DNA from: Escherichia phage vB_EcoP_G7C | Sequence record: NC_015933.1 | Strand: one strand, 5' to 3' | DNA length: 64,000 bases | In this document: piece by piece, positions 38,553 to 58,846 of the stretch | Position numbering within the stretch: position 1 is the stretch's first letter | Layout: every line of letters starts with the position of its first letter | Notes under the pieces: generated by a model | Told to the model about the DNA's origin: nothing | What the model saw: only the letters and a program-made list of their open reading frames with translations | Databases searched by the model: none | Made by a program: the position numbers and the translations under genes

Positions 38553-38625
38553 AGCATGTTTCCTGTTCAAACTTATATCGTATATAGGTAACTTACTCTA
38601 CAGTAAGCCAGTTAAAGAAAAAAGC

Positions 38626-38650
38626 CCCGTAGGGCTTTTATTAGTATTAC
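38626..38650. terminator. Bidirectional terminator-like hairpin upstream of the vRNAP gene
   Basis: Stem AGCCC/GGGCT flanked by A-run and T-run. Confidence 0.5.
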
Positions 38651-40611: not shown

Positions 40612-40623
40612 GATGGTTTCCTA

Positions 40624-41085: not shown

Positions 41086-41098
41086 GGGGATTCTCCTG

Positions 41099-43750
41099 TT
41101 AAACAAGGTCAGTATTAAGAGTCATATCAGAGTAGCTGCCAATCATGTTTAAGGACATGTCAGCTATATCCGAACCAGTCATAAGAGTACGTGAGAGGAA
41201 AGAATCCAACGACTCCAATGACACAAATTGCATAGGGTCAATTACACCCTGCCCAGCAGTACCAAACATTTCTTCATACTGCTTATTGATTGCCATCATA
41301 TCAGTATTGTACTGCTGCATTACATTCTCTGCTTTCTGAATAGTAGCAGCCGTAGATGCATTAATATACTGGCTAATACCATTACCTACTGAACTGGTAA
41401 GCTGCATAATGTTCTGAGCATTCATCATTTCACCGGCTAAGGTAGATAAGGATGTACCAGTAGACATAGCAGTACCAACGTTCATAGCCACCATTGAAGC
41501 AATAGCAGCAATGATAAAACCTAGCTTATCACCAAACAGAGAAGTGGATACTTTAGTGACAATAGATATCATAATCATTGCAGCAATGGCGTTTGCTACA
41601 GCACCTACTATTACAGCAGCTAATCCAACAAAACCTAGCGATGCACCAACTGCACCATAAGCCCCAAGAATACCTGCACCACCAGCACTACCAGCACCCA
41701 TAGTAAATACGGATATAACGACAGCAACTACAACAACCACAATCTTAAAGGCAGAGGACTGATACCACTTTTTCTTAACCTTTTTATATGAGTTCATTAC
41801 TAAGTAAGAGCAGGCAGTAGATAACTGAGTGCTACGAACTAGTGACATTGAACGATAGATGTTGGTGTGCAGGGGAATAATGAATCCACTCTCTTCTGCA
41901 TCACCCATTGCTTCAGCAACATCAATATTTACTGACTTATTTTTATATACCTTGTTGCTATGATGAAGGCCCAATACCCTAAGTTTACGGTAGGTATTAT
42001 TACCATCCTGCCAAAGCAACTCATATTCTTGCATAGTATAAAACGTAGGGGTAACTTCCAGCTTTTTGCTAGCACCAGCACGCATGTTCTTACGGGTAAG
42101 GGTTATATCCCCTGCATATCTGGCTCGAAGTTGTCCTTGTTTAGCACCAGCCCATGCTTCACCGGAATGGGTAGTTTCAAATACGTAGTTCCAACTAATA
42201 GTCATATCATACTTATAATGCTTACTACTATGCACCCTAAACTCCCGCTTAGGTATAACAGGGTATTCTGGCAGCGGTGGAGGTGTTCCAACAATTTGGC
42301 CTTCATGCCTGTCCCACCATTCCTCATATGCATCTACTGCATCGTTTGCTGCCTGATAACCTGCAATCACTGCTTCCAGTGTAGGGTAGGTTGGATCAGG
42401 TGGAAATGCTTCAGTAGCCATCTGAAAGAAACGGTAGATGTATTCCTTAGCAGTATCTTCTGGAGTATTAAGAGATACACCGAATGTGCCATAGATGTAT
42501 TGAATATCGCCTATGTCATCATTCTTCTTAAGCTCAGTCACTACTTTATCTAGCTTACCACCAGTAGCTTTATAGAGTGCCTTCTTACAGTGGGGGTAGA
42601 TTGTGTCATTCTCTACCCATTGCTTATCATTCCTGATTGGAATAAATGGATAGAATCGGTTATCAGTAGCCTCAGTTTCAAACAGTGAATCGAGTGTAGC
42701 GTTACCTGAGTTCTTCTTATAGATAAGCATCTTAGGTGTACCAACAGCAGTCATCTCAGTGTCAGTACGAGTAGTCTGGGATGAGTACTTACGAACCAGT
42801 GTCTCTGTGGTCGTGGTGATTGTATCGGTGCGAGTAACACCACCACCTAAATTAACTACATTAGTGGTTACAGTAGTACTGGATTGAACCTCACCAAACT
42901 TTCTATGAGTCATTACCCTGTCAGATACAACTACAGTTACATCATCAGGTTTCTCAGTGAACCCTCTACGGTAAACCTTAACGTAAGAGTTCCAGTTATC
43001 CACACTTGGTACAGTAACAGTACTGTCTTCATATGGTCTACCATCAGAGTAAACAGAATGAGTCTGTATAGTCTTAGTAAGATTGGTTGTGTTAGCCGTC
43101 GTATTACTTGAGATGGTAGTCCATAACAGAGTAGACGGTAAGTCATTTTCGCTGTTATAGACAGTAGTCGGACCTACTACCGGTGGATTGGTAGCCGGGG
43201 ACTTATAGAACGTGTAATCAGCATAGAGATACAAAGCACCTGGTTCAAAGTTAGTAGGTGTGAATGTAATGGGGGAACCTCCATCTAAGGAGGTCATAGT
43301 GATTACATTAGTATCTTCATCAATGTCTATGTCGAATCGTTCCATGATTCGACTTGGGGCATTCTCATAAAGATACTGATCACACCATTGCTCAAAGTCA
43401 GCAAAGCCAATCTCTGCTGCCTGAACATAGACAGATTCTCCAGCAGGTGGAGTAATTTGACCCTCTATAACAGTAGGGTCAATCTTAGCCAGTACACCTA
43501 ATGAAGCCCCTGCCATACCAACTTCTGAATCATAGTGGTTCTTGCTCCAGCTAGAGAACAGTCGCATACGTATACCAGGCCCCTTCAGATAACTATCAGA
43601 GATAGTGTCTGCCATAGTGAATCCTGTATCAGCAACAATCTTACCGATGACTACAGTCTTCATATAGTTTGGACGTTTGTGTATATCCCCTGCCATGTTA
43701 TAGACAGAGGATGCTACGTATACTTTGGTCTTACTACTGAATAAGCCCAT
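41099..43750 (-). CDS. Large virion protein with long Gly/Ala-rich multi-helix hydrophobic region (candidate ejection/channel protein)
   Basis: 883 aa; roughly 150-aa stretch of consecutive hydrophobic G/A/V/I-rich segments (IVVVVVAVVISVF…AAVIVGAVANAIAAMIMISIV…FIIAAIASMVAMNVG). Confidence 0.75.
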   Translation of the reverse strand: MGLFSSKTKVYVASSVYNMAGDIHKRPNYMKTVVIGKIVADTGFTMADTISDSYLKGPGIRMRLFSSWSKNHYDSEVGMAGASLGVLAKIDPTVIEGQITPPAGESVYVQAAEIGFADFEQWCDQYLYENAPSRIMERFDIDIDEDTNVITMTSLDGGSPITFTPTNFEPGALYLYADYTFYKSPATNPPVVGPTTVYNSENDLPSTLLWTTISSNTTANTTNLTKTIQTHSVYSDGRPYEDSTVTVPSVDNWNSYVKVYRRGFTEKPDDVTVVVSDRVMTHRKFGEVQSSTTVTTNVVNLGGGVTRTDTITTTTETLVRKYSSQTTRTDTEMTAVGTPKMLIYKKNSGNATLDSLFETEATDNRFYPFIPIRNDKQWVENDTIYPHCKKALYKATGGKLDKVVTELKKNDDIGDIQYIYGTFGVSLNTPEDTAKEYIYRFFQMATEAFPPDPTYPTLEAVIAGYQAANDAVDAYEEWWDRHEGQIVGTPPPLPEYPVIPKREFRVHSSKHYKYDMTISWNYVFETTHSGEAWAGAKQGQLRARYAGDITLTRKNMRAGASKKLEVTPTFYTMQEYELLWQDGNNTYRKLRVLGLHHSNKVYKNKSVNIDVAEAMGDAEESGFIIPLHTNIYRSMSLVRSTQLSTACSYLVMNSYKKVKKKWYQSSAFKIVVVVVAVVISVFTMGAGSAGGAGILGAYGAVGASLGFVGLAAVIVGAVANAIAAMIMISIVTKVSTSLFGDKLGFIIAAIASMVAMNVGTAMSTGTSLSTLAGEMMNAQNIMQLTSSVGNGISQYINASTAATIQKAENVMQQYNTDMMAINKQYEEMFGTAGQGVIDPMQFVSLESLDSFLSRTLMTGSDIADMSLNMIGSYSDMTLNTDLV

Positions 43751-43751
43751 A

Positions 43752-44588
43752 TTAATTCAGCCCGTTGTTAATCTTCAGCTTGGACAAAATGGTATCAAGA
43801 CTTGCGTTAGTGAAACCATTAGGCGGGTTCAAGCCTTCATCAATAGTCTTCTGTGTAATCCATGCATCAGTAAACAACTTAGATGCTTTAACTTCTGCAT
43901 CACGTTGGTAAGAAGTAATCTGTTGAGAGTACAACTCTTTCTGCTTACCTACGGAACCCCTAACTGCTGCACCGTCTGTACGAGTATCCAACGTCTGTGC
44001 ACGTTGTGCCTCAGTCTGCTCAGTAATCAGTTTAAGCTGTTGAGGTAACATCTGGTTAGCATTAAACAATGCAGCACAGTATGTTTCAGACTCAGTAGCA
44101 ATCTTCATCTTAGTGAGGGCATATTCACTCTTAGCAGACAGTGCCTGAATCTTAGCCAGCACATACTGAGCTTTAGAAGTAGCCAATGTAACACGAGCAG
44201 TGACTGCCTGAATCTGTGCCATAGCAGCAGCCCAGTATGCTTGGTCACGACCAAGTAAGAACTGAACAGCATTACTCATGCACGATTCCATCATGGCAAT
44301 ATAGGCTTTGGTGTATTCACCACCTGTAATACGGTTAGCTTTAAACTCAGCTTTAAGGTGATTGTGAGCAGATTCCATTAATGCATCAAACGTACCACTG
44401 CCCCCCACTTCACGGGTAGTAAGTGATTCATTTGTTACTTTGCTAATAGCATCAAAGATTGGAGAACTATCCCCACCAGGGATATCCCATTCGGGACCAG
44501 ACATATCAATATCAGGGAGGGTAAAGTCATCACCCTTAGTTAACTCTTCAAGGAGTCGGTTAGCTTCTACCTCAGCAGAACAAGACAT
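43752..44588 (-). CDS. Virion structural protein (hypothetical)
   Basis: ORF in late operon; ATG at 44588 is 6 nt after AGAGGA. Confidence 0.65.
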
Positions 44589-44664
44589 AATCATTCCTCT
44601 TGGTTCAAAAAGAAACGGCCCACGGAGTTACCCCAGTGAGCCGTGTTGAACTGTAGCTTATACG

Positions 44665-45306
44665 TTAATCGTTCAGGCTACCAGCAGCAATCTGTGCTTG
44701 AGCCAGTTGAGCCAATTCTGCTTCAGTCAGCGGAGGCAATACTTCAATGGAGAACTCACGTGCTTCTGTTGCACGGATATCCGGTAAGCCATTCTTACCT
44801 TTACGAGTCGTAATGTTGATGAACTTACGCTCTTTAAGGAACTCGTAGATACAGTACGGAATATGATAACCATTATCGGTCACTTCACCGAATGGAACAA
44901 ACTTACGTACAGTACCCATATATTCGTTAGCTACGGTGATAATCTCACCCGGCAGGTCTTTCTTCTTAGGGTCAAGGTTCTGGATACGTACACGAATCAG
45001 TCGAGTCTGTTCTGCACGAATCTTCTGACCCAGGGTCATCTTCTTAACACCAGCTTCCTGTTTTTCACCCAAAGGATTAACAGCAGCTTCTTTTACTTCT
45101 GGTTCATCTTTTGCTTGTGCAGCTTCAATCTTCTCACGGAGTTTCTCAACGGAGATGTTGTTAGAGAACTTAATATTCATCAACGTTGCACGTTGCTTAA
45201 GAACTTCAAGTTCGCTAGGCATTGCAATATCGTTAACGGTATCTTCGTTGCCCTGTACGTCCAGTTCTACGCCAGTGGTCGGTTTATCGTTAATGCTCAT
45301 GTTCAT
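44665..45306 (-). CDS. Virion structural protein (hypothetical)
   Basis: CAGGAAAT RBS; immediately downstream of the capsid gene. Confidence 0.65.
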   Translation of the reverse strand: MNMSINDKPTTGVELDVQGNEDTVNDIAMPSELEVLKQRATLMNIKFSNNISVEKLREKIEAAQAKDEPEVKEAAVNPLGEKQEAGVKKMTLGQKIRAEQTRLIRVRIQNLDPKKKDLPGEIITVANEYMGTVRKFVPFGEVTDNGYHIPYCIYEFLKERKFINITTRKGKNGLPDIRATEAREFSIEVLPPLTEAELAQLAQAQIAAGSLND

Positions 45307-45373
45307 ATTTCCTGTGGTTCAACTAGTTTTATTAAGAGGGGGACACTAGTCCCCCTTATTTTATTTAGGACTA

Positions 45374-46576
45374 TTACAGAGGAGCAACAGTCTTAATCAG
45401 AGCCAGACGTTCTGGACGTTTAACCAGAATACCGTAGTACCACTTGATGGAACTGAAACCAGTCTCGCCATACGGGTCATTACGGTCAGCAGTTTCTCGA
45501 CCAGGCATCTTAGTCATGATGGAGAACTTAACAGACTTACCATCAGTCTGGAAACCAATGGTAGAGAAGGAGTCATCACCAACTACCAGCATCGGGAACA
45601 CGTCATAGTGTTCTTCGCCACTAACCATAGAAGAACGGTAACCTGGGTTAGTAGAGACTTGTGCACCAGCACCTGCCCAATGCAGCATCTCAGGAACCTG
45701 GATAATACGGAACTTGTCGATACAACCAATTTCACCATTCATCAGAGTACCAGCGTCAGCATAGTGCTGAACCTCAATGAATGCTTTGTTACCGAACAGG
45801 TCTTTCATCGCTTTCAGTTCTGGAACTAGTTCAGAACCAACGTACATTACACGAGTACCGCCAAGTACTTTGGTATCGGTAAGTTTAGAACCAGTGATGA
45901 TAGTAGTCTGAGTCGGAGTACGGTTCTCAGTAAGAATCTGGTCAAGACGCATCAGGTTCTTATAAGAAACTACAGACGGGGTAGCACCTTCACCCGTGAT
46001 GGTAGCATCGGAAGTAGCAGCACCTGCATACAGTACAGTACCAGCAGCAGCCAACAGGTCTTTCTGGAGAACAGCTTCAGTCAGCTGTACAGCACCGTTC
46101 ATCAGTTCACGAGACAGGTGTTCTTTCAGTTGGTCATCAGAATCAAAGTCCAGGGACTCTTGAGTAAATTCGTAGAAGAAACCGAACTTATGAATGGAAC
46201 CTTCACGAGACAGACGGGTAAAGCCTACACGGTTAACACGACCACCGTTCTCTGTCAGCAGAGGCAGTTTAGAAGTGATGTTACCAACGTCTCGGGAAGA
46301 ACCATACAGGTTACCATTAACGATGGTAGCACCATTAGCATCAATACCCTGGTCGTTGATGTTCTTATCGTCAAGCAGTGGAACGTACTCATACACCTTA
46401 ACAGTCTTACCGTAGTTCTTCGGCATGTTAATAGTGTTAGCCAGTGGCATGAAGTACTGGTCTTTACGGGACTGAATAATAGCTTTCTTCAGCCAGTAAT
46501 AGGTATTCATCTGGTCGGAACCAGCACCATCAATGCTAGATTTCTGGCCGTCAATTGGGGCGTTATAGTTTAACAT
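45374..46576 (-). CDS. Major capsid protein (by size and position)
   Basis: 400-aa ORF with CAGGAA RBS located between scaffold-like acidic protein and portal, as in N4-like gene order; no motif-level confirmation. Confidence 0.65.
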
Positions 46577-46592
46577 ATCATCTTATTCCTGT

Positions 46593-47813
46593 TTAAAGAC
46601 TACCCGGTACTGGGAGTTTAGCGAAATCTTCATCACTCATTGCGAGTGGGTTTACAATAGGTGTTGCTTTACGTGTAGCAGCCCGATTAAGGGAAGCTGC
46701 TTTAGCTTGCTCACTGTTAGCCAGAGTCTGCTTAGGTTGTGCTACACGCACTACCGGCTGAACCACTGGCTTAACTGCTTGTACCGGTTCTGGCTTAGCC
46801 GCTCGGTTAAATGCCCCTTGCTGTGTAAGGAGGTTACCGACGTGGTTATAAGCCTGAATGAACGGAGTACCTACCGGAATCTGGCCTAACATTTGAAGAC
46901 GGTTCACTTCGTTTGCAATGGTGTCATAAATACCATTCTCACGTTGTTCGTGAATAGTCTGAAGTAGGCCACGATTCTGGTAAAGAGCTTCTTTACTGGC
47001 AGCATCCCATGTCGAGCCGATAACACCTAATGTAGCTTGTCCTTCTTGAGTAGACTTTAAGTCGTCAATTTCGGTTGCAAAATCTGCTTCGGTGTCGGTA
47101 ACACGGTGATTGCCACCCTGGTAGTTAATTTCTTCATCTGGGTTAAAGTCCAGAGGATCTGTACCAGAGTCTTTGAGCAACTTCTTAATGGCTTCAGGAT
47201 TCTTTTTATCCAGGTCAATAAGGAAAGAAAGTTTATCCTCATCCATTAAACCGTTGTTCTGTAACATCAGCATTACCTTACGGTAAGGCTTTAGTTCTTG
47301 CATCTTGCGAGTATAGTTAGCACCCATCTGCATCAGGCTAATGGCCTCCTCCGGTGAACGGGGAGTAATCACTTTGCCGTTAGCTTTAAAAGGAGCCATC
47401 AACTTCTCGTAACCTTCTTTATAGTTGAAGTCAGCAGGCAGACCTTCAGACTGTTTGCCTTCTTCTTTCTGTTCCTGGCCTGGTTCAGTAGTAGAAGGTT
47501 CAGCTTTAGTAATCGGCTCGCCGTTACTATCAACTTCTGTGTCAACAACTTTATCATCAACTTTATCAGAAGTTAAAGAATTTGCTGAATCTTCTTCATC
47601 TGGTTCGGCTTCAGGGGAGGTTTCTTCGGTTGGTAGGTCTTCAACAGCAGGGGTGTCAACTTCTTCTTCAGGAGTCTGTACGCCGTTGGTTTCTGGGTTG
47701 TTCTGAGTGGAAGTATCTTCCTCAGCGATAATTGCTGGGGCTTCCATATTCAGAATCTCATCATCCGACATTGCGAGAATGTCGGAAGCTGTGGTTGCAG
47801 CTTCCGTAGTCAT
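46593..47813 (-). CDS. Scaffolding-like protein with highly acidic N-terminal region
   Basis: N-terminal ~100 aa rich in E/D/T/P; GGAGAT RBS; position between portal and capsid. Confidence 0.6.
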   Translation of the reverse strand: MTTEAATTASDILAMSDDEILNMEAPAIIAEEDTSTQNNPETNGVQTPEEEVDTPAVEDLPTEETSPEAEPDEEDSANSLTSDKVDDKVVDTEVDSNGEPITKAEPSTTEPGQEQKEEGKQSEGLPADFNYKEGYEKLMAPFKANGKVITPRSPEEAISLMQMGANYTRKMQELKPYRKVMLMLQNNGLMDEDKLSFLIDLDKKNPEAIKKLLKDSGTDPLDFNPDEEINYQGGNHRVTDTEADFATEIDDLKSTQEGQATLGVIGSTWDAASKEALYQNRGLLQTIHEQRENGIYDTIANEVNRLQMLGQIPVGTPFIQAYNHVGNLLTQQGAFNRAAKPEPVQAVKPVVQPVVRVAQPKQTLANSEQAKAASLNRAATRKATPIVNPLAMSDEDFAKLPVPGSL

Positions 47814-47832
47814 AGGAAATATCTCCGGTTAA

Positions 47833-48177
47833 TTATTCGTCTTCAGGTTCAGCACGAACTGCGTCGAGTTCTTCTTCTACCTGTAGAATAACGTCAGCTT
47901 CGTTTTCGCCCATACGAATGGCAAGATCAAGCCAACGACGTAAGTGACCAGCAGCTTGAGCCATGTTCAATGCATCTGCACGGTTATTGGGTTCAAGCAG
48001 TGGGTCACCAGACTCTTGCACGTAACGTGCACAATCTTCCGTACAGAACTGGCGAAGAATTACTTTACGGAACAGTGGATTCTCCAGAAGTTTACGTACA
48101 TCTTCTGCATGTGCAACTGCACCTTTAGCAGCTTCCAGTCGATGTTCCAGTCCAGCGATTGTTGATTCTTTACTCAT
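47833..48177 (-). CDS. Hypothetical protein (head assembly region)
   Basis: ORF track, late operon. Confidence 0.55.
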   Translation of the reverse strand: MSKESTIAGLEHRLEAAKGAVAHAEDVRKLLENPLFRKVILRQFCTEDCARYVQESGDPLLEPNNRADALNMAQAAGHLRRWLDLAIRMGENEADVILQVEEELDAVRAEPEDE

Positions 48178-48190
48178 GTGAAGGTCTGCC

Positions 48191-50476
48191 TTACAGGTTC
48201 ATGCCAAGAGCCGATGCTGGGTCTTGGCTAGGGTCATAGTATTGGGAACTAAGTGAATAAGCTGGGTTTTGTTGAGCAGCTAAATCACGTTCTGGTATAG
48301 AGATCCCATCAGTCAAAGTATTATATCCAACAGCTGCAGATATGTTGGGGGTAGTTTCCCCTTCTTTAATAGGTGTTGTCAATGCCTTAGTTATCTGAAG
48401 GTTCTGGTTTCCTTGGGATTGTGCTTTTTGTTTTTCCATATCACGAGCATGTTTAGTACCAGATTCCTGTTCCAGATAATCCAGGTCTTTAAGGTCACCA
48501 CTAGAAGCAGCCTCTTTAGCTTTAGCCATATTGAGTGCAATCTTGCTTTGTAACTCTTCATTCTCAAGCTGTGCTTTCTGAATTGCCAACTGCTTAAGCT
48601 GTTCTTCCATAGGGTCTGGCTGTGGTTGCCAGGTACGTAACTCATGAGCCAGGTCAGGCATACGTTTAAGTTCTGCAATCTTAGCTACGAGAGATAACGT
48701 AATAGTTTGGTCAACCGTATTACCCAATGTTTGAACCATGAAGCTCAGGTCTTGAGATTTCTGGTCTTGAGATTTCTGGTTATCAATTTCAGCAGTATTA
48801 ATATCAACCTCAATGTCGAAATTACCTTTAAGGTCTTCACGGTTAATCTCTACATACTGCTCGTTAGTAATACGTACTACTTCTTTCTCAGATAAAAACA
48901 CAGCATTCATTGCACAAATCTTAGTACCAATGTCTGCCATACCCTTAGCTAATCGACGAAGGATTGCCATCTCACGTTTGGATGCTGCATCAAGTGCACC
49001 ACGAATACCGGCAGCCACTTCTCCGTAAGCTGAACCAGTTACACCACCGGAGAATGCTTTAACACCAGTTAGTGATTCAGCTTCCTGGTTTTGCATCTGG
49101 GTCATTATTATTGCCGACTGAGGTAACTCAGGGAACTTATGCTCCATAATGGCCTGACTAGGGTTACCCTGCATTGGGTTATATTCATAGTCTTGTCCAT
49201 CGTCATATCGACGACGGTTCAGTGTATCCAGCATTCCTTTAGGGTAACCACGTTGTCCATTTGCACTTCGACCTAACAGGTCAATCATCCCTCGCATAGT
49301 TGCACCAAGAATTGCTTGGTTATCCCCCAACAGTTCAGCATCAGCTTCGCCAAAGAGTTCACGTTTACGTGGCATATAAGGAACAACTACTAAAGGTAAT
49401 TTACCGTCAGGGAATGGGTTCCTCTCCATGCGAATAAGGGTAGAACCAATCCAGGTAGCAACAATAGGTTCCAGAGAACCATCATCATTAATGTCGTAAA
49501 ATCCCCAGTACTCATAAGCAACAACCTTCTTACGAAGTGCATCCTTAAACTGGAAGTCACTAGGAGTTTTACTTTCATGGTCTGGGTCAGTCATAGGACT
49601 GGAACTTTCCCAGTCAATCTTATCTAAATTGTGATAACGGTCCTTATTCTTCATGAGGTCTGCTTTGCATGTCTCAAAAGAGATAACTGCATACAGAGCC
49701 TTATCCAAATCACCATTACAGCTTGGGTCGATAACTACGTTATTAGGGTTAAGCATTTCAACAGTAGGTCTGTTAACCAGTGCCTTCTCTACTTCTACTT
49801 CAGTAACTCCTGTCTGGATTGCATAGGTAGCTTCTCCAGTTTCATTGAAGTAGTTAACAGCTTCTTTAATATCTTCCGGCATTGTTTCATCATACTCACG
49901 AGAATTCTCTGCCTGAAGCTGTAAAGCCTGTTGGAGAACATCTGCCTGTTCCTGGTTCTCAATTGGATACAACTGGAAGACTGGTGTTTCTGTTTTAATC
50001 TTAACAGTCTTACGTTCCCAACCAATACGAGCAATACCAGTACCGTCATCTACAACACTGTGTACGTAATCATCTACTAATTTCACTTTATTAAGCTGGG
50101 TACGAAATTGGTAGTTAAGAACTAATTCATTCTGACGTGCAGCTAATTCATCTTCAAAAGTAACCGGAGTTACTTTAAAGAGTTTATTAGACGAGAGGAA
50201 CGGTTCAGATAATGGAGCATATCGCCACTCTGCCTGACGGCGAACCAGTCTGGGTTGGACTTGAGATCGGCCTTTAACCTTTGGGGGTTTAGCCTTACCT
50301 TTGACTTCCATCAGGTCATTCCACTCACGTATCTGAGCCATAATCGCATCGTGAGCAGGTTTAGCCGATTCCAAATCACCCTTCAGTAATTGGATACTTG
50401 GTTCCTTCTTCCAGTCCGTTAACTTCTCTGATTGAGCCGGGTCTGGTAAAGGCTTAAAAGTGTCTTGGTGTTCCAT
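48191..50476 (-). CDS. Portal protein (by size and position)
   Basis: 761-aa ORF downstream of the lysis cassette and upstream of head genes; AGGA RBS; contains an in-frame 15-bp tandem duplication. Confidence 0.7.
48750..48779. repeat. Perfect 15-bp tandem duplication (TCTTGAGATTTCTGG x2) inside the portal gene
   Basis: Two adjacent identical 15-mers; in-frame, encoding [10 protein letters not shown]. Confidence 0.9.
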
Positions 50477-50484
50477 AGTTAATC

Positions 50485-50985
50485 CTATTCAAAAAGTTTA
50501 CGGTCAGCCTGAATTTGTTTACCCAACTCAATTAGTTGGTTGTCACGGAGTCTAACAGTTGCCCGGAGTTCTTCAACCAAACGTCTGCCTTCTTCAAGAC
50601 TGTTGTCGAGTCTGGCTGCATGGCTTGCAAGACTTCTGCACTCAAGGGTTCCGGCTTCGGCTTGACGTTTATATACCGATGCTCGTCTTTCAGACTGTTG
50701 CATCCGGCTGTCGTAATCACTACTAACGCGAGCAAGCTCGCTTGCGTAATTACTCTCAGCCGTCTGCAACCGGGAAGTGAGTAACCCGACTTCATAACTA
50801 TGGTTTCTTTGGAGAGCATTGTATTTGTCCTGTAGTTCTTGCGTTGCCTTCTGATCTTCAACCTTTTGGGCATCCCACTTCTTTTGAACAGTAGACTGTC
50901 CATTGGAATTACCCCAAAAGTAAATGGTGGCCCCGAGGACCACCACCAGAAGATAAGGCCAACCTTTAGAGATTAGCATCTTCAT
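50485..50985 (-). CDS. i-spanin (Rz-like): N-terminal TM anchor plus periplasmic coiled coil
   Basis: ATG at 50985 with TGGAGG RBS; TM segment [17 protein letters not shown]; remainder charged, helical, Q/E/R-rich. Confidence 0.7.
50532..50819 (-). CDS. o-spanin (Rz1-like lipoprotein) embedded in the i-spanin gene in another frame
   Basis: Signal peptide with lipobox-like …[14 protein letters not shown]; short Pro-containing mature part; entirely inside 50485-50985; start could be 50819 or 50795. Confidence 0.55.
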   Translation of the reverse strand: MLSKETIVMKSGYSLPGCRRLRVITQASLLALVVITTAGCNSLKDEHRYINVKPKPEPLSAEVLQAMQPDSTTVLKKADVWLKNSGQLLDSVTTN

Positions 50986-51601
50986 TACATGCCTCCAGTG
51001 GTACATTACCGATTCGGTTAGCTACCCAACCATACGTAAAGTCTGGCATGTTCAATGAGGTGTAGTGGTTCAATTGTTTAGCATCAAGCAACTTAATCAT
51101 TACCTGACATGCTGCAACTTTGCCTCGTTTTTTCTGCAATGCTTTATATGCATTAACAGTACCTGCACCGACTTTACCATCAACTTGTACTTTAGGGTAG
51201 TCTTTGCCATTACGGGACATTTCATTAAGAGATTGCTGCAACCACTTAGCTGGTCTGGTTACACCGGTATTAACACCAGCATCAACCAGTTTGTATGTTA
51301 CAGCAGGAGATATATCAGCGAAGGCTACGAAGTTAGGTTTAATAACGTAGTCATCAATGTATATCTCAGCAGCCATCTCTTTCGATAAACCTTTCATGGA
51401 ACCATCCCAACCATACTCAGTAGCCAGAACTTCTTGGTGAGACTTAGCTACTGAATGGGTAATACCATGATTAGTTTCCCCACCTGGGTCACGAGGATTG
51501 TTTACGTACCCTCCTTCCATATAGAACACTGCCCCCAGAATAGCAGCGATAACTCCTCCCACTGCACCCCCTTTTGCAGCAAGTTTCTGTTTAGCTTTCA
51601 T
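50966..51601 (-). CDS. Endolysin: GH108-family N-acetylmuramidase with N-terminal signal-anchor (SAR-like) segment
   Basis: GH108 signature EGGYVNNPRDPGGETNHGIT; N-terminal Gly/Ala-rich hydrophobic stretch GGAVGGVIAAILGAVF; AAGGAAG RBS. Confidence 0.85.
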   Translation of the reverse strand: MKAKQKLAAKGGAVGGVIAAILGAVFYMEGGYVNNPRDPGGETNHGITHSVAKSHQEVLATEYGWDGSMKGLSKEMAAEIYIDDYVIKPNFVAFADISPAVTYKLVDAGVNTGVTRPAKWLQQSLNEMSRNGKDYPKVQVDGKVGAGTVNAYKALQKKRGKVAACQVMIKLLDAKQLNHYTSLNMPDFTYGWVANRIGNVPLEACNEDANL

Positions 51602-51851
51602 GAGAATCTTCCTTTGGATGGAATCGTATTAGTCTGCCCACAATATTTAAAGCAAACAGTGCGATTGTAATACTGGAACCATGTGGAATATCTTCAAGGA
51701 TGTGACGTGGTAGTCCTGTTAGCATTGGTTGGATAATATCTACTGTAGAAAACAGAATTAATCCAAATGCACTAATCTGAACAGATGCCCACTTCCAGGA
51801 CTTCTTCCAGTTAGGAACTAGCCCTATTTTTCTTTTTAGCTTGTGAACCAT
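51591..51851 (-). CDS. Holin candidate (two TM helices)
   Basis: ATG at 51851 with GGGAGAT RBS; hydrophobic helices ISAFGLILFSTVDII and ITIALFALNIVG; immediately upstream of endolysin. Confidence 0.5.
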   Translation of the reverse strand: MVHKLKRKIGLVPNWKKSWKWASVQISAFGLILFSTVDIIQPMLTGLPRHILEDIPHGSSITIALFALNIVGRLIRFHPKEDSHES

Positions 51852-52168
51852 GCGAATATCTCCCGTCTTGCAGCAGCCAATACACCAATAATTGCACCTG
51901 CCCCAGCCCACACCCACTTACCAAAAATTCCAGCACCTGCAACCTTATGTTTAATGGTGATGAACTCTTCGATGGTAGGTTCAGACTTAGTGATGCTCTC
52001 CTCTACCCGTCTAAGTCGGGTACTAAGATCACCCATAGACTCGCTTAGCTTTTTAATAGACTCTTCCATTTTCTCCCTATCCCTCGATTCACGAGTTTGG
52101 TTTTCGAAAATGTTTCTCAGTCTCTCTTCAAGTCTGGCTAGAGTTACGTTATCTGGTTCATTTCCCAT
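51836..52168 (-). CDS. Coiled-coil protein with C-terminal Gly-rich TM anchor (holin/antiholin-like or tail-associated)
   Basis: Charged helical N-terminal region, C-terminal GAGIFGKWVWAGAGAIIGVLAAA. Confidence 0.45.
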   Translation of the reverse strand: MGNEPDNVTLARLEERLRNIFENQTRESRDREKMEESIKKLSESMGDLSTRLRRVEESITKSEPTIEEFITIKHKVAGAGIFGKWVWAGAGAIIGVLAAARREIFAWFTS

Positions 52169-52290: not shown

Positions 52291-52316
52291 ATAAAAATAA
52301 CCCCGCCGAAGCGGGG
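52291..52316 (-). terminator. Terminator/attenuator hairpin downstream of the 851-aa tailspike gene
   Basis: 16-nt hairpin CCCCGC-CGAA-GCGGGG followed on the minus strand by a T-rich run; near-identical copy at 54927-54943. Confidence 0.55.
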
Positions 52317-52344: not shown

Positions 52345-54900
52345 TTAGCCCACATTACCAATAGTCATGCTGTACTCAAGAGTAAATAACTGACTAGAAG
52401 CAGACGGGTTATATAATCCTACATAACCAGAGGTAGCTACAGTAGTAGAGAATGCAGACGTAGTTGCCGTGCCATCATCTGACTCTACAGTAAAGGTATG
52501 AGCACCAGTAGAGGAGGAAGTATATTCCCATACTTTAAAGCCTTTATCTTCACGAGTAGTATCACCAAATACTACCCAGTCAGTTGGGTTAGCATTGTTG
52601 AACGTACCGATGCACATATTACCTGCAGCATTCACACCGACTAACACACCAACATTAGTAAGTGGGTTATAGTTAAGTGCAATATAGGTGTTTTTCTTAA
52701 GACCTCTCGGTACAGCCAGATAACCTACAGATGCACCATTATAAAGGTGAGAGTCTGCGGTTTTACTGAACTGAGTACCAGACAAAACTTCACCAAATAC
52801 ACCATAGTCATTGGCGTTAGACTGCTTCATTACTGGAGCAGGACGGGTCATGTTAGGTTCTTTGCTAAGACGAACCATCGGCAGCTTAACCCCATCCGTT
52901 TTGTAAGAACCAAACTTCAGCATAGGGAAGTAAGCATCAGTAGGACTACCATCAATGATATAACGGATAAAGTTCAAACCTTTACGTAATCGCCCCATAT
53001 AGGTAGTAAGGGTTTTGCCACCCCCAAAGTAACTCATGGCAGTCTTGCCATTAAGCACGGTGCGGTAGGCATTAATTTGAGTATTACGTTCTTGGTATTC
53101 ACCGGACTCAAACAATGCTTTGCCCACAGGAGACTCAACACGGATGTTGTGGGATTGCCCAACAACGGCAGCATTAGTCCATGGTTCTAGAAGGGATACA
53201 GTCATACCTTCTTCTTCACACCATACCATTGTGGTCATGGTTACATTTTCATTAGTTACACACTTAGACAGAAAACGGAATACGTTCAGAGCAGGAGCAC
53301 CAGATACAGGTACATACTGTGGTGCATAGTGAGTACCGGAAGGATACCCTACACAATCCCAATAGTTTTCTACAGCAGCCTGAGTGAGCATATCCCCCGG
53401 TCTAACACGACGACAGTACTTATTACCAAGGGTCTGCATATACATCGCATTACCCATAGCCATTTGTCCAAGTTCTTGTGGGTGAGTAGTATCCCAGGTT
53501 CCATCCTTCTTAACATAGTAGTAGTACCCAGTTTGCTCATTGCGGCTACTTGCACTAGTCAGATTTGGTCCCAAGTTAAAATACTCAACACCTAGTTTAT
53601 CTGCCATGTACTTCTTAGTACTAAGCTCAAATGCCATACGTACTGAGTCATTATCGTTGACTGTTACAATACCAACGGCACAACCGTAGCCCCATGCTTT
53701 ACGAACAAACTTGTCAATCTGGTCACGGTAGGTAGCGATACTAGCACTACTGTCATTCCAACCCATTGCAAGGATACATACACGAGGAGCTTCTGCACCA
53801 TAGCGTGTGTTACCGAAGAACCCACGGTCGAAGTTACGATAACCCCAACCGTCGGATAACTTCTTACCAGATACGGAACAGTTAGCTGATTGGTAAATAG
53901 TTTCACCACTACGACGAGACTGTGTGAGCAACAAGCCATTCATCCAGTGTTCAGTCCATGAGTGGGAACCCCCAGATAAAGAATGATTGTATGTACTTGG
54001 GGCATCTAAGTCACCATCTGAGTTAGTTGGCGGAGAACTCCAATCCTGTTTACCCCATGCACCATCAGTAATGGAATCGCCAATGATACCGATACGACAA
54101 AATGTCTGGTCACGGAATGCACAGTATATTTCGTCATTAACGGTTTTATTGTTACCATTCATTGAAGCAGCAATGTCAAACGTATGGTCCTTTGCATACC
54201 ACTGGTTTTTAACAATAAGTTTGCCTTCCCCAACAAACTTACGGACATCATCATCGGGTAGTAAGTTACAACGAATGGTAACACCATTAGGGATAAAGAT
54301 TTTACCGGGGAAAGCATAAGCAGCTGCACGGTTATCCGTAGTAGTATTAACAACAATACCAGGAACATCATATACGGAAGTAGAACCAACAGGAGGAATT
54401 AGACCATTGTTTAATTCTTGTCGTATTAATTCATCATTAGCAATAACCCATGCAGTGGGAGAAATACCACCTGCACTAACCGGGGTAGAGTTAAGTGGTA
54501 CGCTCTTGGGTAACCCACCAGCCCAGCGATACTGCGTGCCATTATGAGTAAGCAATTCATTCTTGGTCTGTATAACTGAGCCAGAAGTAAACGTATCCGG
54601 TAAAGTTACATATTCTTTGCGAGTAACAGCTAATGCACCTAAGTCCACGCTACCAGCAGAGTGAACTAATACACCAGCAGGACTAAGGCTTATAGCAGTA
54701 ACACCTGAACCAATGTTAGCAGGTAAGGAATAAGCACGCTGTGTCCCTTTGTCGTAGATGACTTTGTAACCACTTAGTACAGCACCCACTGAGAAGTAAA
54801 CAACCTCAGATTGTTTAACCCCAAAGTGACGTGCTATTGCTTGTTTATTGGTTAGGATTCCTGTTGAACCCTTACCGCCTTGTGAGAACATTTCGTTCAT
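52345..54900 (-). CDS. Tailspike with SGNH/GDSL esterase domain (candidate surface-polysaccharide deacetylase)
   Basis: GDSL block RIGIIGDSITDGAWG (Ser at nt 54073-54081); N-terminal ~160 aa similar to an internal domain of the upstream 1063-aa tailspike; AAGAGG RBS. Confidence 0.85.
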   Translation of the reverse strand: MNEMFSQGGKGSTGILTNKQAIARHFGVKQSEVVYFSVGAVLSGYKVIYDKGTQRAYSLPANIGSGVTAISLSPAGVLVHSAGSVDLGALAVTRKEYVTLPDTFTSGSVIQTKNELLTHNGTQYRWAGGLPKSVPLNSTPVSAGGISPTAWVIANDELIRQELNNGLIPPVGSTSVYDVPGIVVNTTTDNRAAAYAFPGKIFIPNGVTIRCNLLPDDDVRKFVGEGKLIVKNQWYAKDHTFDIAASMNGNNKTVNDEIYCAFRDQTFCRIGIIGDSITDGAWGKQDWSSPPTNSDGDLDAPSTYNHSLSGGSHSWTEHWMNGLLLTQSRRSGETIYQSANCSVSGKKLSDGWGYRNFDRGFFGNTRYGAEAPRVCILAMGWNDSSASIATYRDQIDKFVRKAWGYGCAVGIVTVNDNDSVRMAFELSTKKYMADKLGVEYFNLGPNLTSASSRNEQTGYYYYVKKDGTWDTTHPQELGQMAMGNAMYMQTLGNKYCRRVRPGDMLTQAAVENYWDCVGYPSGTHYAPQYVPVSGAPALNVFRFLSKCVTNENVTMTTMVWCEEEGMTVSLLEPWTNAAVVGQSHNIRVESPVGKALFESGEYQERNTQINAYRTVLNGKTAMSYFGGGKTLTTYMGRLRKGLNFIRYIIDGSPTDAYFPMLKFGSYKTDGVKLPMVRLSKEPNMTRPAPVMKQSNANDYGVFGEVLSGTQFSKTADSHLYNGASVGYLAVPRGLKKNTYIALNYNPLTNVGVLVGVNAAGNMCIGTFNNANPTDWVVFGDTTREDKGFKVWEYTSSSTGAHTFTVESDDGTATTSAFSTTVATSGYVGLYNPSASSQLFTLEYSMTIGNVG

Positions 54901-54926
54901 ATAAACCTCTTTGTTTTTCTAAGAAA

Positions 54927-54943
54927 CCCCGCCGAAGCGGGGG
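54927..54943 (-). promoter_or_regulatory. Intergenic hairpin between the two tailspike genes (attenuator or processing site)
   Basis: CCCCGC-CGAA-GCGGGGG, same hairpin as 52301-52316. Confidence 0.5.
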
Positions 54944-54947
54944 TATT

Positions 54948-57900
54948 CTACCTGATAATGAACTTACCGAGGCTCATATCATTTATCAGAGTTGCAACTA
55001 TGTTTGCCAGTTGGGTGGTTGTTAACGTGTTCACATCACCACCACGCAACTGTCCGGCGTTTGTGAATGGGAACTGCTGAGGCTGAGCGCTATTGTAAAA
55101 CTGGTTCCCCTCTTCATACCGAGAAGACGGCGTAGAAGTGTAAAGGATTCCTTTAGTAGTCGCAGGAACAGAACAATTCACGATGTTTACATGACCAGCG
55201 ATGCCAACGCACTCGATAGGGCGATCAACAGTACCAAACGGTTGAACACCAACCAGGCGATGCACGTTCAAGCTCTGAGCTGCCTGCGCGTACAGATAAG
55301 AACTAGGCTGCCCGTTAACACCTCTGATGTTCCAGTTGTCTACTTCAATGTGTCGGGCATTATGAATCTGACAGATTGCTTGACCGTCTGCATCAGGAAA
55401 TGCACCAACAATACGCACGTTCTTCATAGTGATATCGGAAGTAGCTGTTGCGTTCAACCCGCAGTTAATCATAACAGCTTTAGAACCAGATTGTGTGCAG
55501 TGGATTGTCAGCCCGTCGAATTCAATATCGCCTAGATTTACTGTGTGAGAGGAGCCATCCTTACGCAAAAAGAATACAGCCCAATCTGTGTGTCCTGTTA
55601 TTAAGATATTACTAAATCGCAGGCGTGTGCAGACTACCGGATAATATCGACAGAGGATTGGCTGTGAACAATTCTTGATTGTGATGTTGTCATACGTGAC
55701 ATCACTGGAACCCTCAATCGCAATACCCGCATTACATGCTTCAATGTAAGCACCGGTCACACTTCCGTTGGTGAAGTTTGCGCGGATGCCATGCGATTCA
55801 CAGTTCTTAATTGTTACGTTGCTAATGTTGACGCGAGTAATTGCAGTACCATTACCACCACCAACGCCAGTAACCAAATCTTCAGACTGAAGACGCAAAC
55901 CGTTACCGCCGGACCCATTAATACTAATATCATGAATCATCACATTAAGCGTGCGACCGGGACGTGCTGAAGTCATAAACACAGAAGATGCCCATGTGTC
56001 TCTAGTACGGATATGATGTATATGTGCTTCTGTTGCGTTCCCAACAATAATCGCCATGCCCTGACGGTTGCTGCCGTCCGGCTGTTGGATTTCTCCCCGC
56101 CCACAATCGTGAGAATACAAGTTGTTTGCAAGCGCCCATCTTCCATAATCCATTGTTACGTTACTGTTCCATGCCCCCTGCAATTCACACCCAGAAAGCT
56201 CAAGCGTACCAGCAGATTGCATAGCCAACCCAACGCCAGGGTCAAATGACGCATCCTGTCGGTAGAAATCAAAAAGGAAGTTACCGACAATGCGGATGTC
56301 ATAAGGGGTATAGTCATATTCATTGTTTGTATCATTCCATGTTCTCGGTGAACGCAGCCAGAACTGACGTGAATCTACCGTCACTTTCGGTAATAGCGGT
56401 TTGAGGTGAATATCCCCCTGGATGGTGAATATACCCTCAACTGTAACCGGTGAATAGCCAATGTAAATATTACCTGCCTTTGGTAGTAGGCGTGAAAGCT
56501 GCGCATCGTTCTGCGCAATCTTCCAGCCAGTGATCACTTCGTTGAAGAACGAAGCCGGATATAGCTCGTGAGCGCCGTTAATGACGGTCTGGTCGAAACT
56601 GGTGACTGTCACAGATGACGTAAGCGCGGAACCCAACATCATCAGATTGCCACTCACCCTGACAAACAGTACTCCTGACGGAATAACATCACCGACAGAC
56701 AACGAACGGTTATTTTCTGTTGGGAAGCACGAACCACCGTAAAAACCTGATGGTATGTTGGTGGTAAAACTATTGTATTCTACCCAGGCGTTTGCCGATA
56801 CTCCGCCAGTATTTATCGGCGTAGAGTTAGCCCCCACTGTTTTTGGTAAGGTTCCACCCCAGGCGTAGCACTGACCAGCAGCAACATGCCATACGACATC
56901 TAATTTGCTAGTAACTGTTGCACCCTCCTCAAAACTACCATCAACAAGCGTTAAGCCAGCCTCTGCAAGACTACGACGCCATAGTTCTCTGGTATTTCGC
57001 TGTTGGTAGGAATCCAGCAGAGTAACAGTAATATTTCCGGGGGAATAAGTTAACTGCCCATTGGAGACAGCGTTGATGTAAACATTAGTAGGTAGAGTGG
57101 GTAACCCATAAATGTGTTGTGTAACTACATCATAAATTACCTTCTTACCATTAAGTACCTGAGTAGTATCCGTACTAAGGATTACTTCAGAATCTTTTAC
57201 GTTAGCTGCACGAGCCACTTCCTGAATAGTGTGGTCTGTTATTTCAAGTACCTTAGCTTCCCCGCCCAACTGAACAATAAGACGATCATTCGTAGCCAAG
57301 GGTTCAGTAAGAAGGATTCGGTTATTGTCTGAGTCAATCGTATAGGAGTTATTAGTTAACCCTTTATGGAAACGTAAACCATTCTTGTATACAGCAGGTA
57401 CAGCCTGGAAAGTGAAAGGAATATCAATTACCTGCTCCCCACCAACAGCAGCACCATGATTGTACAACCAGTTAATAGTTACCCAGTCGGATACGTTAGG
57501 GTTATCCGGTGTAGCAGGAACACCTGTACGCATAACAACAACAAAGTCACCCTGCTCCAGTGGAGTAGTAAACTTAATCTCAAAAGCTACTGGGTCATAC
57601 TCAAAATCGTAACCCTCAGTCTGCCAATCACCATTAACAATCATAAATGGTGCACCAGCCGTTTCATCAGGGATACGAATGGTAGTCTCACCTCCATTAG
57701 CTGAACCAGAATTATAAATCCAGGGGATGTAGCCACCATCGTTAGATTTATCAGCACCAGTATCCGAACCGGTAGTAGCTACCTTAACCCACGAACCAGT
57801 TGCAGTAGTATCGTCTGGTAGGATACCGGTACGGTCACCCTCTACGTACAAGTAGTCAGTAACCTGACGGTCACCAGCAGGAGTCTTGTCATAGATACGA

Positions 57901-58139
57901 GCAAAGGAGGCCTTAGTAGTTAACGCCTTAAGCTCTGCCTCAGACTGTACACCTAGAACCATTCCATACTGGTTCAGGAAATCATAGATAAGTTTTAGGT
58001 TACCCAGGTTACAGTAGACAGTACGAACCACATGGTAAGCATTACCGAGTAGTGCATCTACCATTGGGTCGTTGGATTTATTCTGGCAGTAAGGATTGGA
58101 CCAATCCTGATTTGCATCGAAGGGGGTATGTGCGTTCAT
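54948..58139 (-). CDS. Tailspike/tail fibre with tandem N-terminal particle-binding domains and C-terminal right-handed beta-helix (depolymerase-like)
   Basis: ATG at 58139 is 6 nt after GAGG (ORF-track ATG 58145 lacks spacing); two repeated N-terminal modules (IPWIYNSGSANGGETTIRIP / INWLYNHGAAVGGEQVIDIP); C-terminal beta-helix-like repeats (NVTIKNCESHGIRANFTNG…TYDNITIKNCS). Confidence 0.85.
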   Translation of the reverse strand: MNAHTPFDANQDWSNPYCQNKSNDPMVDALLGNAYHVVRTVYCNLGNLKLIYDFLNQYGMVLGVQSEAELKALTTKASFARIYDKTPAGDRQVTDYLYVEGDRTGILPDDTTATGSWVKVATTGSDTGADKSNDGGYIPWIYNSGSANGGETTIRIPDETAGAPFMIVNGDWQTEGYDFEYDPVAFEIKFTTPLEQGDFVVVMRTGVPATPDNPNVSDWVTINWLYNHGAAVGGEQVIDIPFTFQAVPAVYKNGLRFHKGLTNNSYTIDSDNNRILLTEPLATNDRLIVQLGGEAKVLEITDHTIQEVARAANVKDSEVILSTDTTQVLNGKKVIYDVVTQHIYGLPTLPTNVYINAVSNGQLTYSPGNITVTLLDSYQQRNTRELWRRSLAEAGLTLVDGSFEEGATVTSKLDVVWHVAAGQCYAWGGTLPKTVGANSTPINTGGVSANAWVEYNSFTTNIPSGFYGGSCFPTENNRSLSVGDVIPSGVLFVRVSGNLMMLGSALTSSVTVTSFDQTVINGAHELYPASFFNEVITGWKIAQNDAQLSRLLPKAGNIYIGYSPVTVEGIFTIQGDIHLKPLLPKVTVDSRQFWLRSPRTWNDTNNEYDYTPYDIRIVGNFLFDFYRQDASFDPGVGLAMQSAGTLELSGCELQGAWNSNVTMDYGRWALANNLYSHDCGRGEIQQPDGSNRQGMAIIVGNATEAHIHHIRTRDTWASSVFMTSARPGRTLNVMIHDISINGSGGNGLRLQSEDLVTGVGGGNGTAITRVNISNVTIKNCESHGIRANFTNGSVTGAYIEACNAGIAIEGSSDVTYDNITIKNCSQPILCRYYPVVCTRLRFSNILITGHTDWAVFFLRKDGSSHTVNLGDIEFDGLTIHCTQSGSKAVMINCGLNATATSDITMKNVRIVGAFPDADGQAICQIHNARHIEVDNWNIRGVNGQPSSYLYAQAAQSLNVHRLVGVQPFGTVDRPIECVGIAGHVNIVNCSVPATTKGILYTSTPSSRYEEGNQFYNSAQPQQFPFTNAGQLRGGDVNTLTTTQLANIVATLINDMSLGKFIIR

Positions 58140-58846
58140 CGCCATCCTCGTTGTTCAAATTTAGTTTCGGTAATTGAAATACTTCCATTAGCCAGGTCGT
58201 AATCAACAACCTCACCACAGATGCTTTCATACGTTTGCAGATACTCTGCTGCTTTAGCGTTAGCTTCAGGTGTATTCAAACCAGTGTGGTAACGATAACC
58301 CACCCAGTTATGAAGTGCCGTCATTAGCGTATCAGCTAAATCAACTTCCTGTTCTTCATCACCCGTAAGAACTGGGTGCTTAGCTTGATACGTTACGTTA
58401 AGTGCCTCGAAGTGTCGAGGTCGCATACACTGAATAGTATCAGGCCGTGGGGTGAAAATAGCATGGGGGTCTGAGTCGTCGTTCAGTCTACGTCGATTCC
58501 CCGAGTTATCAAACACATTTAAGATTTTAATAACATCATCCTGGAAAGGTTTCATGAACCCATCCATGATGTACGGATATTGGACCTCAAGAGTAGGCTT
58601 AGTAAATTTGGAGTAAGCATATTTGGATTGAAGAGGATAATCAGTACGCCCTTCCTTCATCTCCACAATGCAGCTATTTGTCTTAAGAGGGAAACGACTA
58701 TGCAGTCGTACCAGTCCTTCATTAATAGCAGCCAGTATCTCCGGCTTACTATCTGGTTCAATATCTAGTCTGTCATCCGTGACTGCACCAGTACCTTTTA
58801 AGGTACTTAGTGCTAAGCCACGGTATACTTCCGATAATTTCTGCAT
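58136..58846 (-). CDS. Virion structural protein (hypothetical)
   Basis: GAGGAA RBS; stop overlaps tailspike start (ATGA). Confidence 0.65.
   Translation of the reverse strand: MQKLSEVYRGLALSTLKGTGAVTDDRLDIEPDSKPEILAAINEGLVRLHSRFPLKTNSCIVEMKEGRTDYPLQSKYAYSKFTKPTLEVQYPYIMDGFMKPFQDDVIKILNVFDNSGNRRRLNDDSDPHAIFTPRPDTIQCMRPRHFEALNVTYQAKHPVLTGDEEQEVDLADTLMTALHNWVGYRYHTGLNTPEANAKAAEYLQTYESICGEVVDYDLANGSISITETKFEQRGWR

Follow-up and report, generated by a model that had tools for sequence, protein, structure and literature searches.

Within the window, i.e., the whole 64-kb stretch of phage vB_EcoP_G7C DNA analyzed here, two large ORFs adjoin each other on the minus strand, at positions 52345–54900 (gene 63.1, encoding the 851-aa esterase tailspike gp63.1) and 54948–58139 (gene 66, encoding the 1063-aa anchor tailspike gp66); all features described below lie on the same strand. 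The initial annotation had described two adjacent large tail genes at this locus, and each of the features it attributed to them was found where it had placed them. Gene 63.1 was assigned from Pfam matches, from identity to the protein of PDB 4QNL (4qnl_A, 851/851 residues), and from an exact-sequence look-up that returned YP_004782195.1/AEL79675.1. The same look-up matched all 1063 residues of gp66 to YP_004782196.1/AEL79676.1, and gp66 was also assigned to PHROG 12242 (tail protein). The comparison to G7C gp63.1 and gp66 proposed at the outset thus returned identity residue for residue for both proteins. The only detectable differences are the length of the PDB 4QNL chain (859 residues, i.e., 8 more than the 851-aa gp63.1) and, for gp66 (YP_004782196.1), a mechanical ORF call of 1065 aa starting 2 codons upstream, at an in-frame ATG at position 58145. 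Since this ATG falls within a GAGGA ribosome-binding site, we consider 58139 as the true start, and the recorded gp66 sequence is indeed the 1063-aa product. Both tailspikes are already known: gp63.1 was crystallized, and the pair was biochemically characterized as an O-antigen deacetylase and its anchor spike.

Upstream of gene 66, a 236-aa virion structural or adaptor-like protein (58136–58846; PHROG 2125, E 8.9e-93) is encoded by an ORF that terminates across the start codon of gene 66 (ATGA). This protein displayed a sub-threshold match to Pfam SU10_adaptor (26.1 bits vs a cut-off of 27), and in relatives it is annotated as “30 kDa protein” or “adaptor protein”. Scans for Rfam families and tRNAs across the 64-kb window yielded no hits. 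The backbone of the window is 91–94% identical to other Gamaleyavirus genomes, and the sibling isolates G8C, 10Gb, and St10y are reported to have a gp63.1 of the same type (bioRxiv 10.1101/542787).

The domain order of gp63.1 is that of the crystallized protein, with Lipase_GDSL and four G7C-derived Pfam families (Tail_spike_N, Gp63_3rd_G7C, G7C_GBD, and G7C_C) all matched above cut-off, and families built on G7C gp63.1 itself matched at E-values of 1e-41 to 1e-126. An N-terminal head domain (aa 1–165, 54406–54900), delineated from BLASTP and from matches to Shigella phage B2 gp48 and phage CBA120 spikes, and for which a role in attachment to gp66 was published (PMC6872550), is followed by domain 3 (aa 179–244, 54169–54366; PF21562 Gp63_3rd_G7C, E 7.9e-41), an SGNH/GDSL esterase domain (aa 270–485, 53446–54093; PF00657 and motifs), a galactose-binding-domain-like module (aa 514–665, 52906–53361; PF21988 G7C_GBD, E 5.4e-109), and a C-terminal domain (aa 669–848, 52357–52896; PF22245 G7C_C, E 2.6e-126). 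The GDSL/SGNH esterase block reported from the sequence alone was confirmed: the GDSL block GIIGDSITDGAWG lies at aa 271–283, Lipase_GDSL (PF00657) scored 26.7 bits vs a cut-off of 23.6, and all SGNH motifs are present, namely GDS at 274–276 (S276), SVSG at 342–345 (G345), GWND at 380–383 (N382), and DTTH at 470–473 (D470/H473). Judging from the family consensus, these motifs would correspond to SGNH blocks I, II, III, and V. PMC6872550, PMC6393563, and PMC8825819, which summarize Prokhorov et al. 2017, describe deacetylation of the Escherichia coli 4s O-antigen by gp63.1, and an O-acetyl esterase activity that spares the backbone is reported for gp63.1 itself in PMC10743462, PMC6393563, and PMC6872550.

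For gp66, an N-terminal virion-anchor region (aa 1–135, 57735–58139) shows 58–88% amino acid identity in all Gamaleyavirus relatives, whose C-termini differ; its role as an anchor was previously described (PMC6872550), and aa 3–80 match the N-terminus of a “60 kDa protein” (PDB 9lc0_A, E 5.7e-5). The two tandem modules anticipated in this N-terminal part were recovered as an internal repeat (33% identity, E 7e-9, z = 12) between aa 138–206 (57522–57728) and aa 222–293 (57261–57476). These are T4 gp10-like modules, referred to as XD2 and XD3, respectively (PMC8825819), the second being the published docking site of gp63.1, and residues 129–210 match the XD3 domain of CBA120 TSP4-N (7rej_A residues 254–335, E 1.1e-7). 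Beyond these modules, a head domain at aa 306–453 (56781–57224; aa 308–455 in the 1065-aa numbering) is paralogous to the N-terminus of gp63.1: BLASTP aligned it with gp63.1 aa 20–152 at 37% identity (E 1e-15), and the Smith–Waterman score was 182 compared to 31.8 ± 5.5 over 500 shuffles (z = 27). Both segments match Pfam PF18668 Tail_spike_N, in gp66 at aa 402–456 (E 1.1e-15). The likeness of the gp63.1 N-terminus to an internal segment of gp66, as initially noticed in a few shared blocks, is therefore significant, and the nucleotide positions given for these blocks were right to within a few codons. The suggestion that the shared domain is a docking-type surface did not hold, however: it represents a tailspike head domain (D1–D2, Pfam Tail_spike_N) and not a mutual docking surface, the docking site being located elsewhere on gp66 (PMC8825819, PMC6872550).

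The remainder of gp66 (aa 459–1063, 54948–56765) forms the receptor-binding body. Because a sequence search of this body against the PDB returned no match at E ≤ 10, its fold was modeled. The AlphaFold2 model (mean pLDDT 86.2, pTM 0.82) displayed a long series of short beta-strands and corresponds to a right-handed parallel beta-helix with a short C-terminal helix, in line with the C-terminal beta-helix proposed in the initial annotation. Among Foldseek matches in the PDB listed at E < 0.001, almost all were right-handed parallel beta-helix proteins, including phi29 gp12, spikes of HK620 and CBA120, PL6 lyases, and GH28/GH87 enzymes. Probabilities were ~1.0 for the spikes of HK620, CBA120, APK16, and K64-1 and for the GH28, GH87, and PL6 enzymes, yet TM-scores were only 0.2–0.43. 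Homologues of the body are named “right-handed parallel beta-helix repeat-containing protein”. A P22-like prophage tailspike with a gp66-like body is encoded in 27 complete E. coli genomes, and Enterobacter hormaechei is also represented among the hosts of homologues. E. coli 4s has a temperate phage, Hf4s, whose tailspike was considered as a gp66 homologue that would reveal the specificity of the latter, but the Hf4s paper makes no such connection. Pfam detected no catalytic family above threshold on the gp66 body, with only sub-threshold pectate-lyase- or NosD-like matches, hence no enzyme class was assigned to it. Several acidic residues (D688, D754, E800, and E809, numbered D230, D296, E342, and E351 in the fragment) do not vary across homologues, even in those with as little as 39% identity.

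Together with the sequence identities, domain anatomy, head-domain paralogy, tandem repeat, and beta-helix fold computed here, the literature, from which the enzymatic activity of gp63.1, the gp63.1–gp66 complex, and its docking site are taken, indicates that this is almost certainly the host-recognition locus of vB_EcoP_G7C, an N4-like podovirus of the genus Gamaleyavirus, or of a sibling isolate with an identical locus, acting through a branched two-spike mechanism. The N-terminal ~135 residues of a trimeric gp66 would fix this spike to the tail, followed by the two T4 gp10-like modules (aa 138–294), the head (aa ~306–453), and the beta-helix body. A second trimeric spike, gp63.1, would dock its N-terminal head onto gp66 at the second gp10-like module, yielding a branched 1:1 complex. 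On E. coli 4s, whose O-antigen is O22-like, the SGNH domain of gp63.1 would strip the O-acetyl groups of this antigen and leave its backbone uncut, a deacetylation that would be essential for infection. The summaries of Prokhorov et al. 2017 within PMC6872550, PMC6393563, and PMC8825819 similarly describe gp63.1 as lacking direct virion binding and being carried by gp66, itself anchored via its own N-terminus, while the function and architecture of the G7C spikes are also stated in PMC10743462 and bioRxiv 10.1101/542787. The docking site is narrowed across these sources: gp66 residues 138–294 are named as the gp63.1-binding region in PMC6872550, and according to PMC8825819, which cites deletion mutants, docking requires the second gp10-like module (XD3) only. 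An esterase spike that deacetylates the O-antigen and hangs on a second spike, as the initial annotation had proposed, thus matches the published account (PMC6872550, PMC6393563, PMC8825819), except that the site of attachment on gp66 is the second gp10-like module rather than the shared domain.

The presence of the same Tail_spike_N-type domain in both proteins could, taken alone, suggest a common mode of attachment, in which both spikes would bind the tail independently via this head-type domain, in parallel and not as a branch. In gp66, however, this domain is internal (aa 306–453) and comes after an anchor conserved across Gamaleyavirus and two gp10-like modules, and the gp48 and gp49 homologues of phage B2 co-purify and have been resolved together in one complex (PMC11654681). 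Independent attachment is also contradicted by published gp66 deletion and binding experiments, as far as these are outlined in the sources above, and by PMC8825819 and PMC6872550, in which gp63.1 does not touch the particle and requires gp66 XD3. We thus regard parallel attachment as highly improbable, and retain the branched arrangement.

The role of the gp66 beta-helix is where we infer rather than recover. One reading, which we hold to be less likely than not, is that it actively recognizes or degrades glycans and has a receptor of its own, having been acquired as a cassette shared with Agtrevirus spikes, P22-like E. coli prophage tailspikes, and a myophage baseplate. A terminator-like hairpin, CCCCGCTTCGGCGGGG, is located between genes 66 and 63.1 (54927–54942), and an identical one 28 nt downstream of gene 63.1 (52301–52316), followed by a T-rich tract. 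These are the only 2 copies in 64 kb vs 0 expected by chance, and no longer direct repeat was found around them, the two sites having only the 16–18 nt hairpin in common. The hairpin between the two genes was previously discussed as a recombination boundary (bioRxiv 10.1101/542787), and the identical pair flanking gene 63.1 could delimit the cassette in an exchange of spikes. Conversely, gp66 might serve solely as a structural adaptor or fiber, with a catalytically inert beta-helix that holds gp63.1 and relays a conformational signal without any receptor of its own. This would be consistent with gp66 orthologues of some G7C-like phages (PMC6872550), as well as B2 gp49 (410 aa), having no C-terminal body, with the strict dependence of E. 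coli 4s infection on the O-acetyl substrate of gp63.1 (PMC10743462), and with the lack of any Pfam catalytic family at threshold on the body. Several invariant acidic residues are nonetheless what would be expected of a functional glycan-binding or glycan-cleaving spike, and the body is a well-conserved module that also forms the receptor-binding region in spikes of an Agtrevirus, of P22-like E. coli prophages, and of a myophage baseplate. In addition, Prokhorov and colleagues reportedly found in 2017 that both G7C spikes are essential for infection. We therefore consider an inert gp66 body doubtful. If the beta-helix is an active module, G7C would possess a second, cryptic host specificity, or gp66 would perform a second enzymatic step after deacetylation. 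Lysogens carrying homologous P22-like prophage tailspikes offer a cheap route to guess the glycan target of gp66.

Overall, this two-gene locus is the type example of an anchor-branched tailspike system for which structure, biochemistry, and genetics are already published, and as such adds little as a discovery. It does serve as a positive control, in which an experimentally validated architecture (esterase, paralogous head domain, tandem gp10-like modules, and beta-helix) was recovered from raw sequence. Among related spike systems, Shigella phage B2 gp49 (PDB 9D83/9D84) matches gp66 aa 17–377, i.e., the anchor, gp10-like modules, and start of the head (E 1.3e-128), B2 gp48 (9d84_A) matches gp63.1 aa 1–180 (E 2.6e-71), and Moo19 gp82 (9D80/9D81) matches gp66 aa 1–474 (E 3e-156). 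These B2 gp48/gp49 and Moo19 gp82 spikes also have esterase activity (PMC11654681). Unlike G7C gp66, however, B2 gp49 is a bare adaptor without a beta-helix body, and beyond the N-terminal regions, the bodies of B2 gp48 and Moo19 gp82 display no sequence likeness to those of gp63.1 and gp66. For phage CBA120 (Kuttervirus), the gp63.1 N-terminus is matched by the heads of TSP1 (E 6e-68) and TSP3 (E 1.7e-53) and by the N-terminus of TSP4, and the gp66 modules by the XD3 domain of TSP4. The logic of this system is that of G7C, with a secondary spike docking on the gp10-like domains of a primary spike (PMC8825819), yet CBA120, a myovirus, bears four spikes and uses both XD sites, whereas there are two spikes in G7C, where one XD site is reportedly empty (PMC6872550). 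Finally, the gp66 body is 69–84% identical at the protein level to the tail spike of Agtrevirus MK-13 (YP_009882837.1) and to P22-like E. coli prophage tailspikes; for MK-13, the likeness also includes the preceding head, with DNA 84% identical over 1.8 kb. In contrast, N-terminal attachment is unlike that of gp66: the prophage spikes carry a P22 head-binding domain (PF09008), and MK-13 has an Ackermannviridae head. Since attachment modules differ while the bodies are alike, the gp66 body is a horizontally exchanged cassette.

The spike locus is the characterised type example itself and is thus already known. The 851-residue product of gene 63.1 (gp63.1, the esterase tailspike) matched PDB 4qnl_A ("Tail fiber protein") without a single difference across its 851 residues, and exact-sequence look-up returned YP_004782195.1 / AEL79675.1 for this protein and YP_004782196.1 / AEL79676.1 for the 1063-residue product of gene 66 (gp66, the anchor tailspike), both from Escherichia phage vB_EcoP_G7C. 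Three Pfam families derived from the G7C structure (G7C_C, G7C_GBD and Gp63_3rd_G7C) matched gp63.1, as did Tail_spike_N and Lipase_GDSL. The 64-kb stretch thus comes from G7C or from a sibling that cannot be told apart from it. Megablast of the locus gave partial matches only, because the DNA collections searched were without G7C records; the structural half (window 30000-50000) was 91-94% identical to Gamaleyavirus genomes, e.g., F22, E20, Bas96, and PhAPEC5/7. A 3754-residue minus-strand ORF (27306-38570) corresponds, by annotation of matching relatives, to the giant virion RNA polymerase, which is typical of N4-like phages, and scans of the whole 64-kb window gave neither tRNA genes nor Rfam families.

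Both spike genes are large minus-strand ORFs arranged head to tail, with ORF calling and translation placing gene 63.1 at 52345-54900 and, mechanically, gene 66 at 54948-58145. The first ATG of gene 66 (58145) falls within a GAGGA ribosome-binding site (Shine-Dalgarno); the next, at 58139, leaves a 5-nt spacer and yields the 1063-residue product of the initial annotation, and the database look-up by exact sequence recorded this form and no 1065-residue form. The true start is ATG 58139, not 58145. Upstream is a 236-residue adaptor-like structural gene (58136-58846), whose stop codon and this start share the sequence ATGA, which suggests translational coupling. Directly downstream of the spike genes lies a lysis cassette (50485-52168, minus). 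Its products are a 110-residue PHROG 5211 protein without assigned function (51836-52168), a holin-like protein with DUF7940 (51591-51917), a muramidase of family GH108 that also has a peptidoglycan-binding domain (50966-51601), and an Rz-like spanin (50485-51006), in whose gene an ORF embedded in another frame (50532-50903) might be Rz1.

The GDSL/SGNH esterase block proposed for gp63.1 was recovered as GIIGDSITDGAWG at residues 271-283, along with the SGNH blocks SVSG (342-345), GWND (380-383), and DTTH (470-473) and a PF00657 score exceeding the gathering threshold. The suspected likeness between the spikes also proved significant: residues 20-152 of gp63.1 and 306-453 of gp66 are 37% identical (E 1e-15), their Smith-Waterman score is 182 vs 31.8 ± 5.5 for 500 shuffles (z = 27), and Tail_spike_N matches this region in both proteins. 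The two tandem modules reported toward the gp66 N-terminus are indeed an internal repeat (residues 138-206 vs 222-293; 33% identity, E 7e-9, z = 12), the first of which also matches residues 254-335 (XD3) of CBA120 TSP4-N (PDB 7rej). Of the branched two-spike reading in the initial annotation, the attachment of the esterase spike to the second spike stands, but the role of the shared segment as a mutual docking domain does not. This segment is a tailspike head domain (D1-D2 in CBA120 nomenclature), which in gp63.1 is the N-terminal part contacting gp66 and in gp66 is merely the head located in cis behind the gp10-like modules. On gp66 it is the tandem module pair that serves as docking platform, previously mentioned just in passing; gp63.1 docks on these modules, and there is therefore no docking through a mutually shared domain.

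For the last 605 residues of gp66, no sequence relative was found in the PDB, even at E ≤ 10. A model built after homologue collection (21 homologues aligned) had a mean pLDDT of 86.2 and a pTM of 0.82, with many short strands in long succession, and its Foldseek matches in the PDB were nearly all right-handed parallel beta-helix proteins, which confirms the C-terminal beta-helix originally predicted. These included the HK620, CBA120, APK16, and K64-1 tailspikes, as well as GH28 and GH87 hydrolases, PL6 lyases, and phi29 gp12; since TM-scores were modest (0.2-0.43), we assigned the fold class alone and no enzyme family. Alongside the search of this body for a catalytic family, which gave none assignable, stands the presence of acidic residues that do not vary among homologues as distant as 39% identity. 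The body may be an enzyme, a binder or only a signal relay. We consider it rather unlikely that gp66 is an inert adaptor; only slightly more probable is the stronger reading that the body is an active glycan module with a receptor of its own, which would provide G7C with a second specificity or with another enzymatic step. PMC6872550 assigns gp66 no specificity, and the O-serotypes of lysogens with gp66-like prophage tailspikes could reveal its glycan target.

DNA likeness of genes 66 and 63.1 to other Gamaleyavirus genomes is limited to their 5' ends. The gp66 body and head resemble a tail spike of MK-13, a Shigella phage in the genus Agtrevirus (Ackermannviridae), with 78% protein and 84% DNA identity. 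Tailspikes of P22-like E. coli prophages share 69-84% identity with the body; they have a P22 head-binding domain in place of the gp66 N-terminus and were present in 27 of the 5426 complete genomes of E. coli. Homologues also occur in Enterobacter hormaechei, and the nearest metagenomic relative (93% identity) lies within a myophage baseplate gene cluster. The beta-helix body (gp66 residues 459-1063, window 54948-56765; also L001 8179-10281 and L002 3959-6382) is thus a travelling cassette. The gp63.1 esterase body (residues 171-851; window 52345-54390) is rare among sequenced phages, with tblastn matches in just 17 of 50,697 phage records, a figure for the collection as held, in which G7C sibling isolates reportedly with the same gp63.1 type were not among the matches. 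Its best full-length matches were three only (~53-55% identity), in the 152-kb phage SKA64 and in Pisces and Penshu1, both podophages of 39 kb, and the esterase spike has therefore moved between very different virion types. A GC hairpin with a UUCG loop, CCCCGCTTCGGCGGGG, lies on the minus strand directly downstream of gene 66 (54927-54942), and an identical copy directly downstream of gene 63.1 (52301-52316, minus), so that gene 63.1 is bracketed. Exactly two copies exist within the 64 kb, with 0 expected by chance, and the likeness between the sites is confined to the hairpin, the flanks being different. Passages of a preprint (bioRxiv 10.1101/542787) discuss the upstream copy as a possible recombination boundary in spike-module swapping, with no mention found there of bracketing by a second identical hairpin; the preprint also describes modular swapping of C-terminal parts for the G7C set, with which the mosaicism of gp66 and gp63.1 agrees.

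The attachment mechanism is published, and is drawn here from open papers summarising Prokhorov et al. 2017. According to these summaries, G7C has two receptor-binding proteins, and gp63.1 acts as a deacetylase on the O22-like O-antigen of E. coli 4s and keeps its backbone intact, an activity that is essential because rough and O-acetylation-deficient mutants resist (PMC10743462; PMC6393563). They further describe gp63.1 as having no contact with the particle and binding to gp66, itself held by its N-terminal anchor, through gp66 residues 138-294, which are homologous to T4 gp10 subdomains D2 and D3; the complex is 1:1, one potential site staying unoccupied (PMC6872550). In gp66 deletion mutants, as summarised, the second gp10-like module (XD3) was required and the first (XD2) was not (PMC8825819). 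The domain anatomy seen here fits this branched mechanism exactly: across Gamaleyavirus genomes, gp66 is conserved in its first ~135 residues, the C-termini being different. Residues 3-80 match the N-terminus of the "60 kDa protein" in solved structure 9lc0, probably an N4 virion reconstruction. Among solved relatives, Shigella phage B2 gp49 (410 residues) matches gp66 residues 17-377 and B2 gp48 matches gp63.1 residues 1-180, these two having been solved together as a complex, and Moo19 gp82 matches gp66 residues 1-474 (PMC11654681). The B2 and Moo19 structures reinforce the branched-spike picture for G7C.
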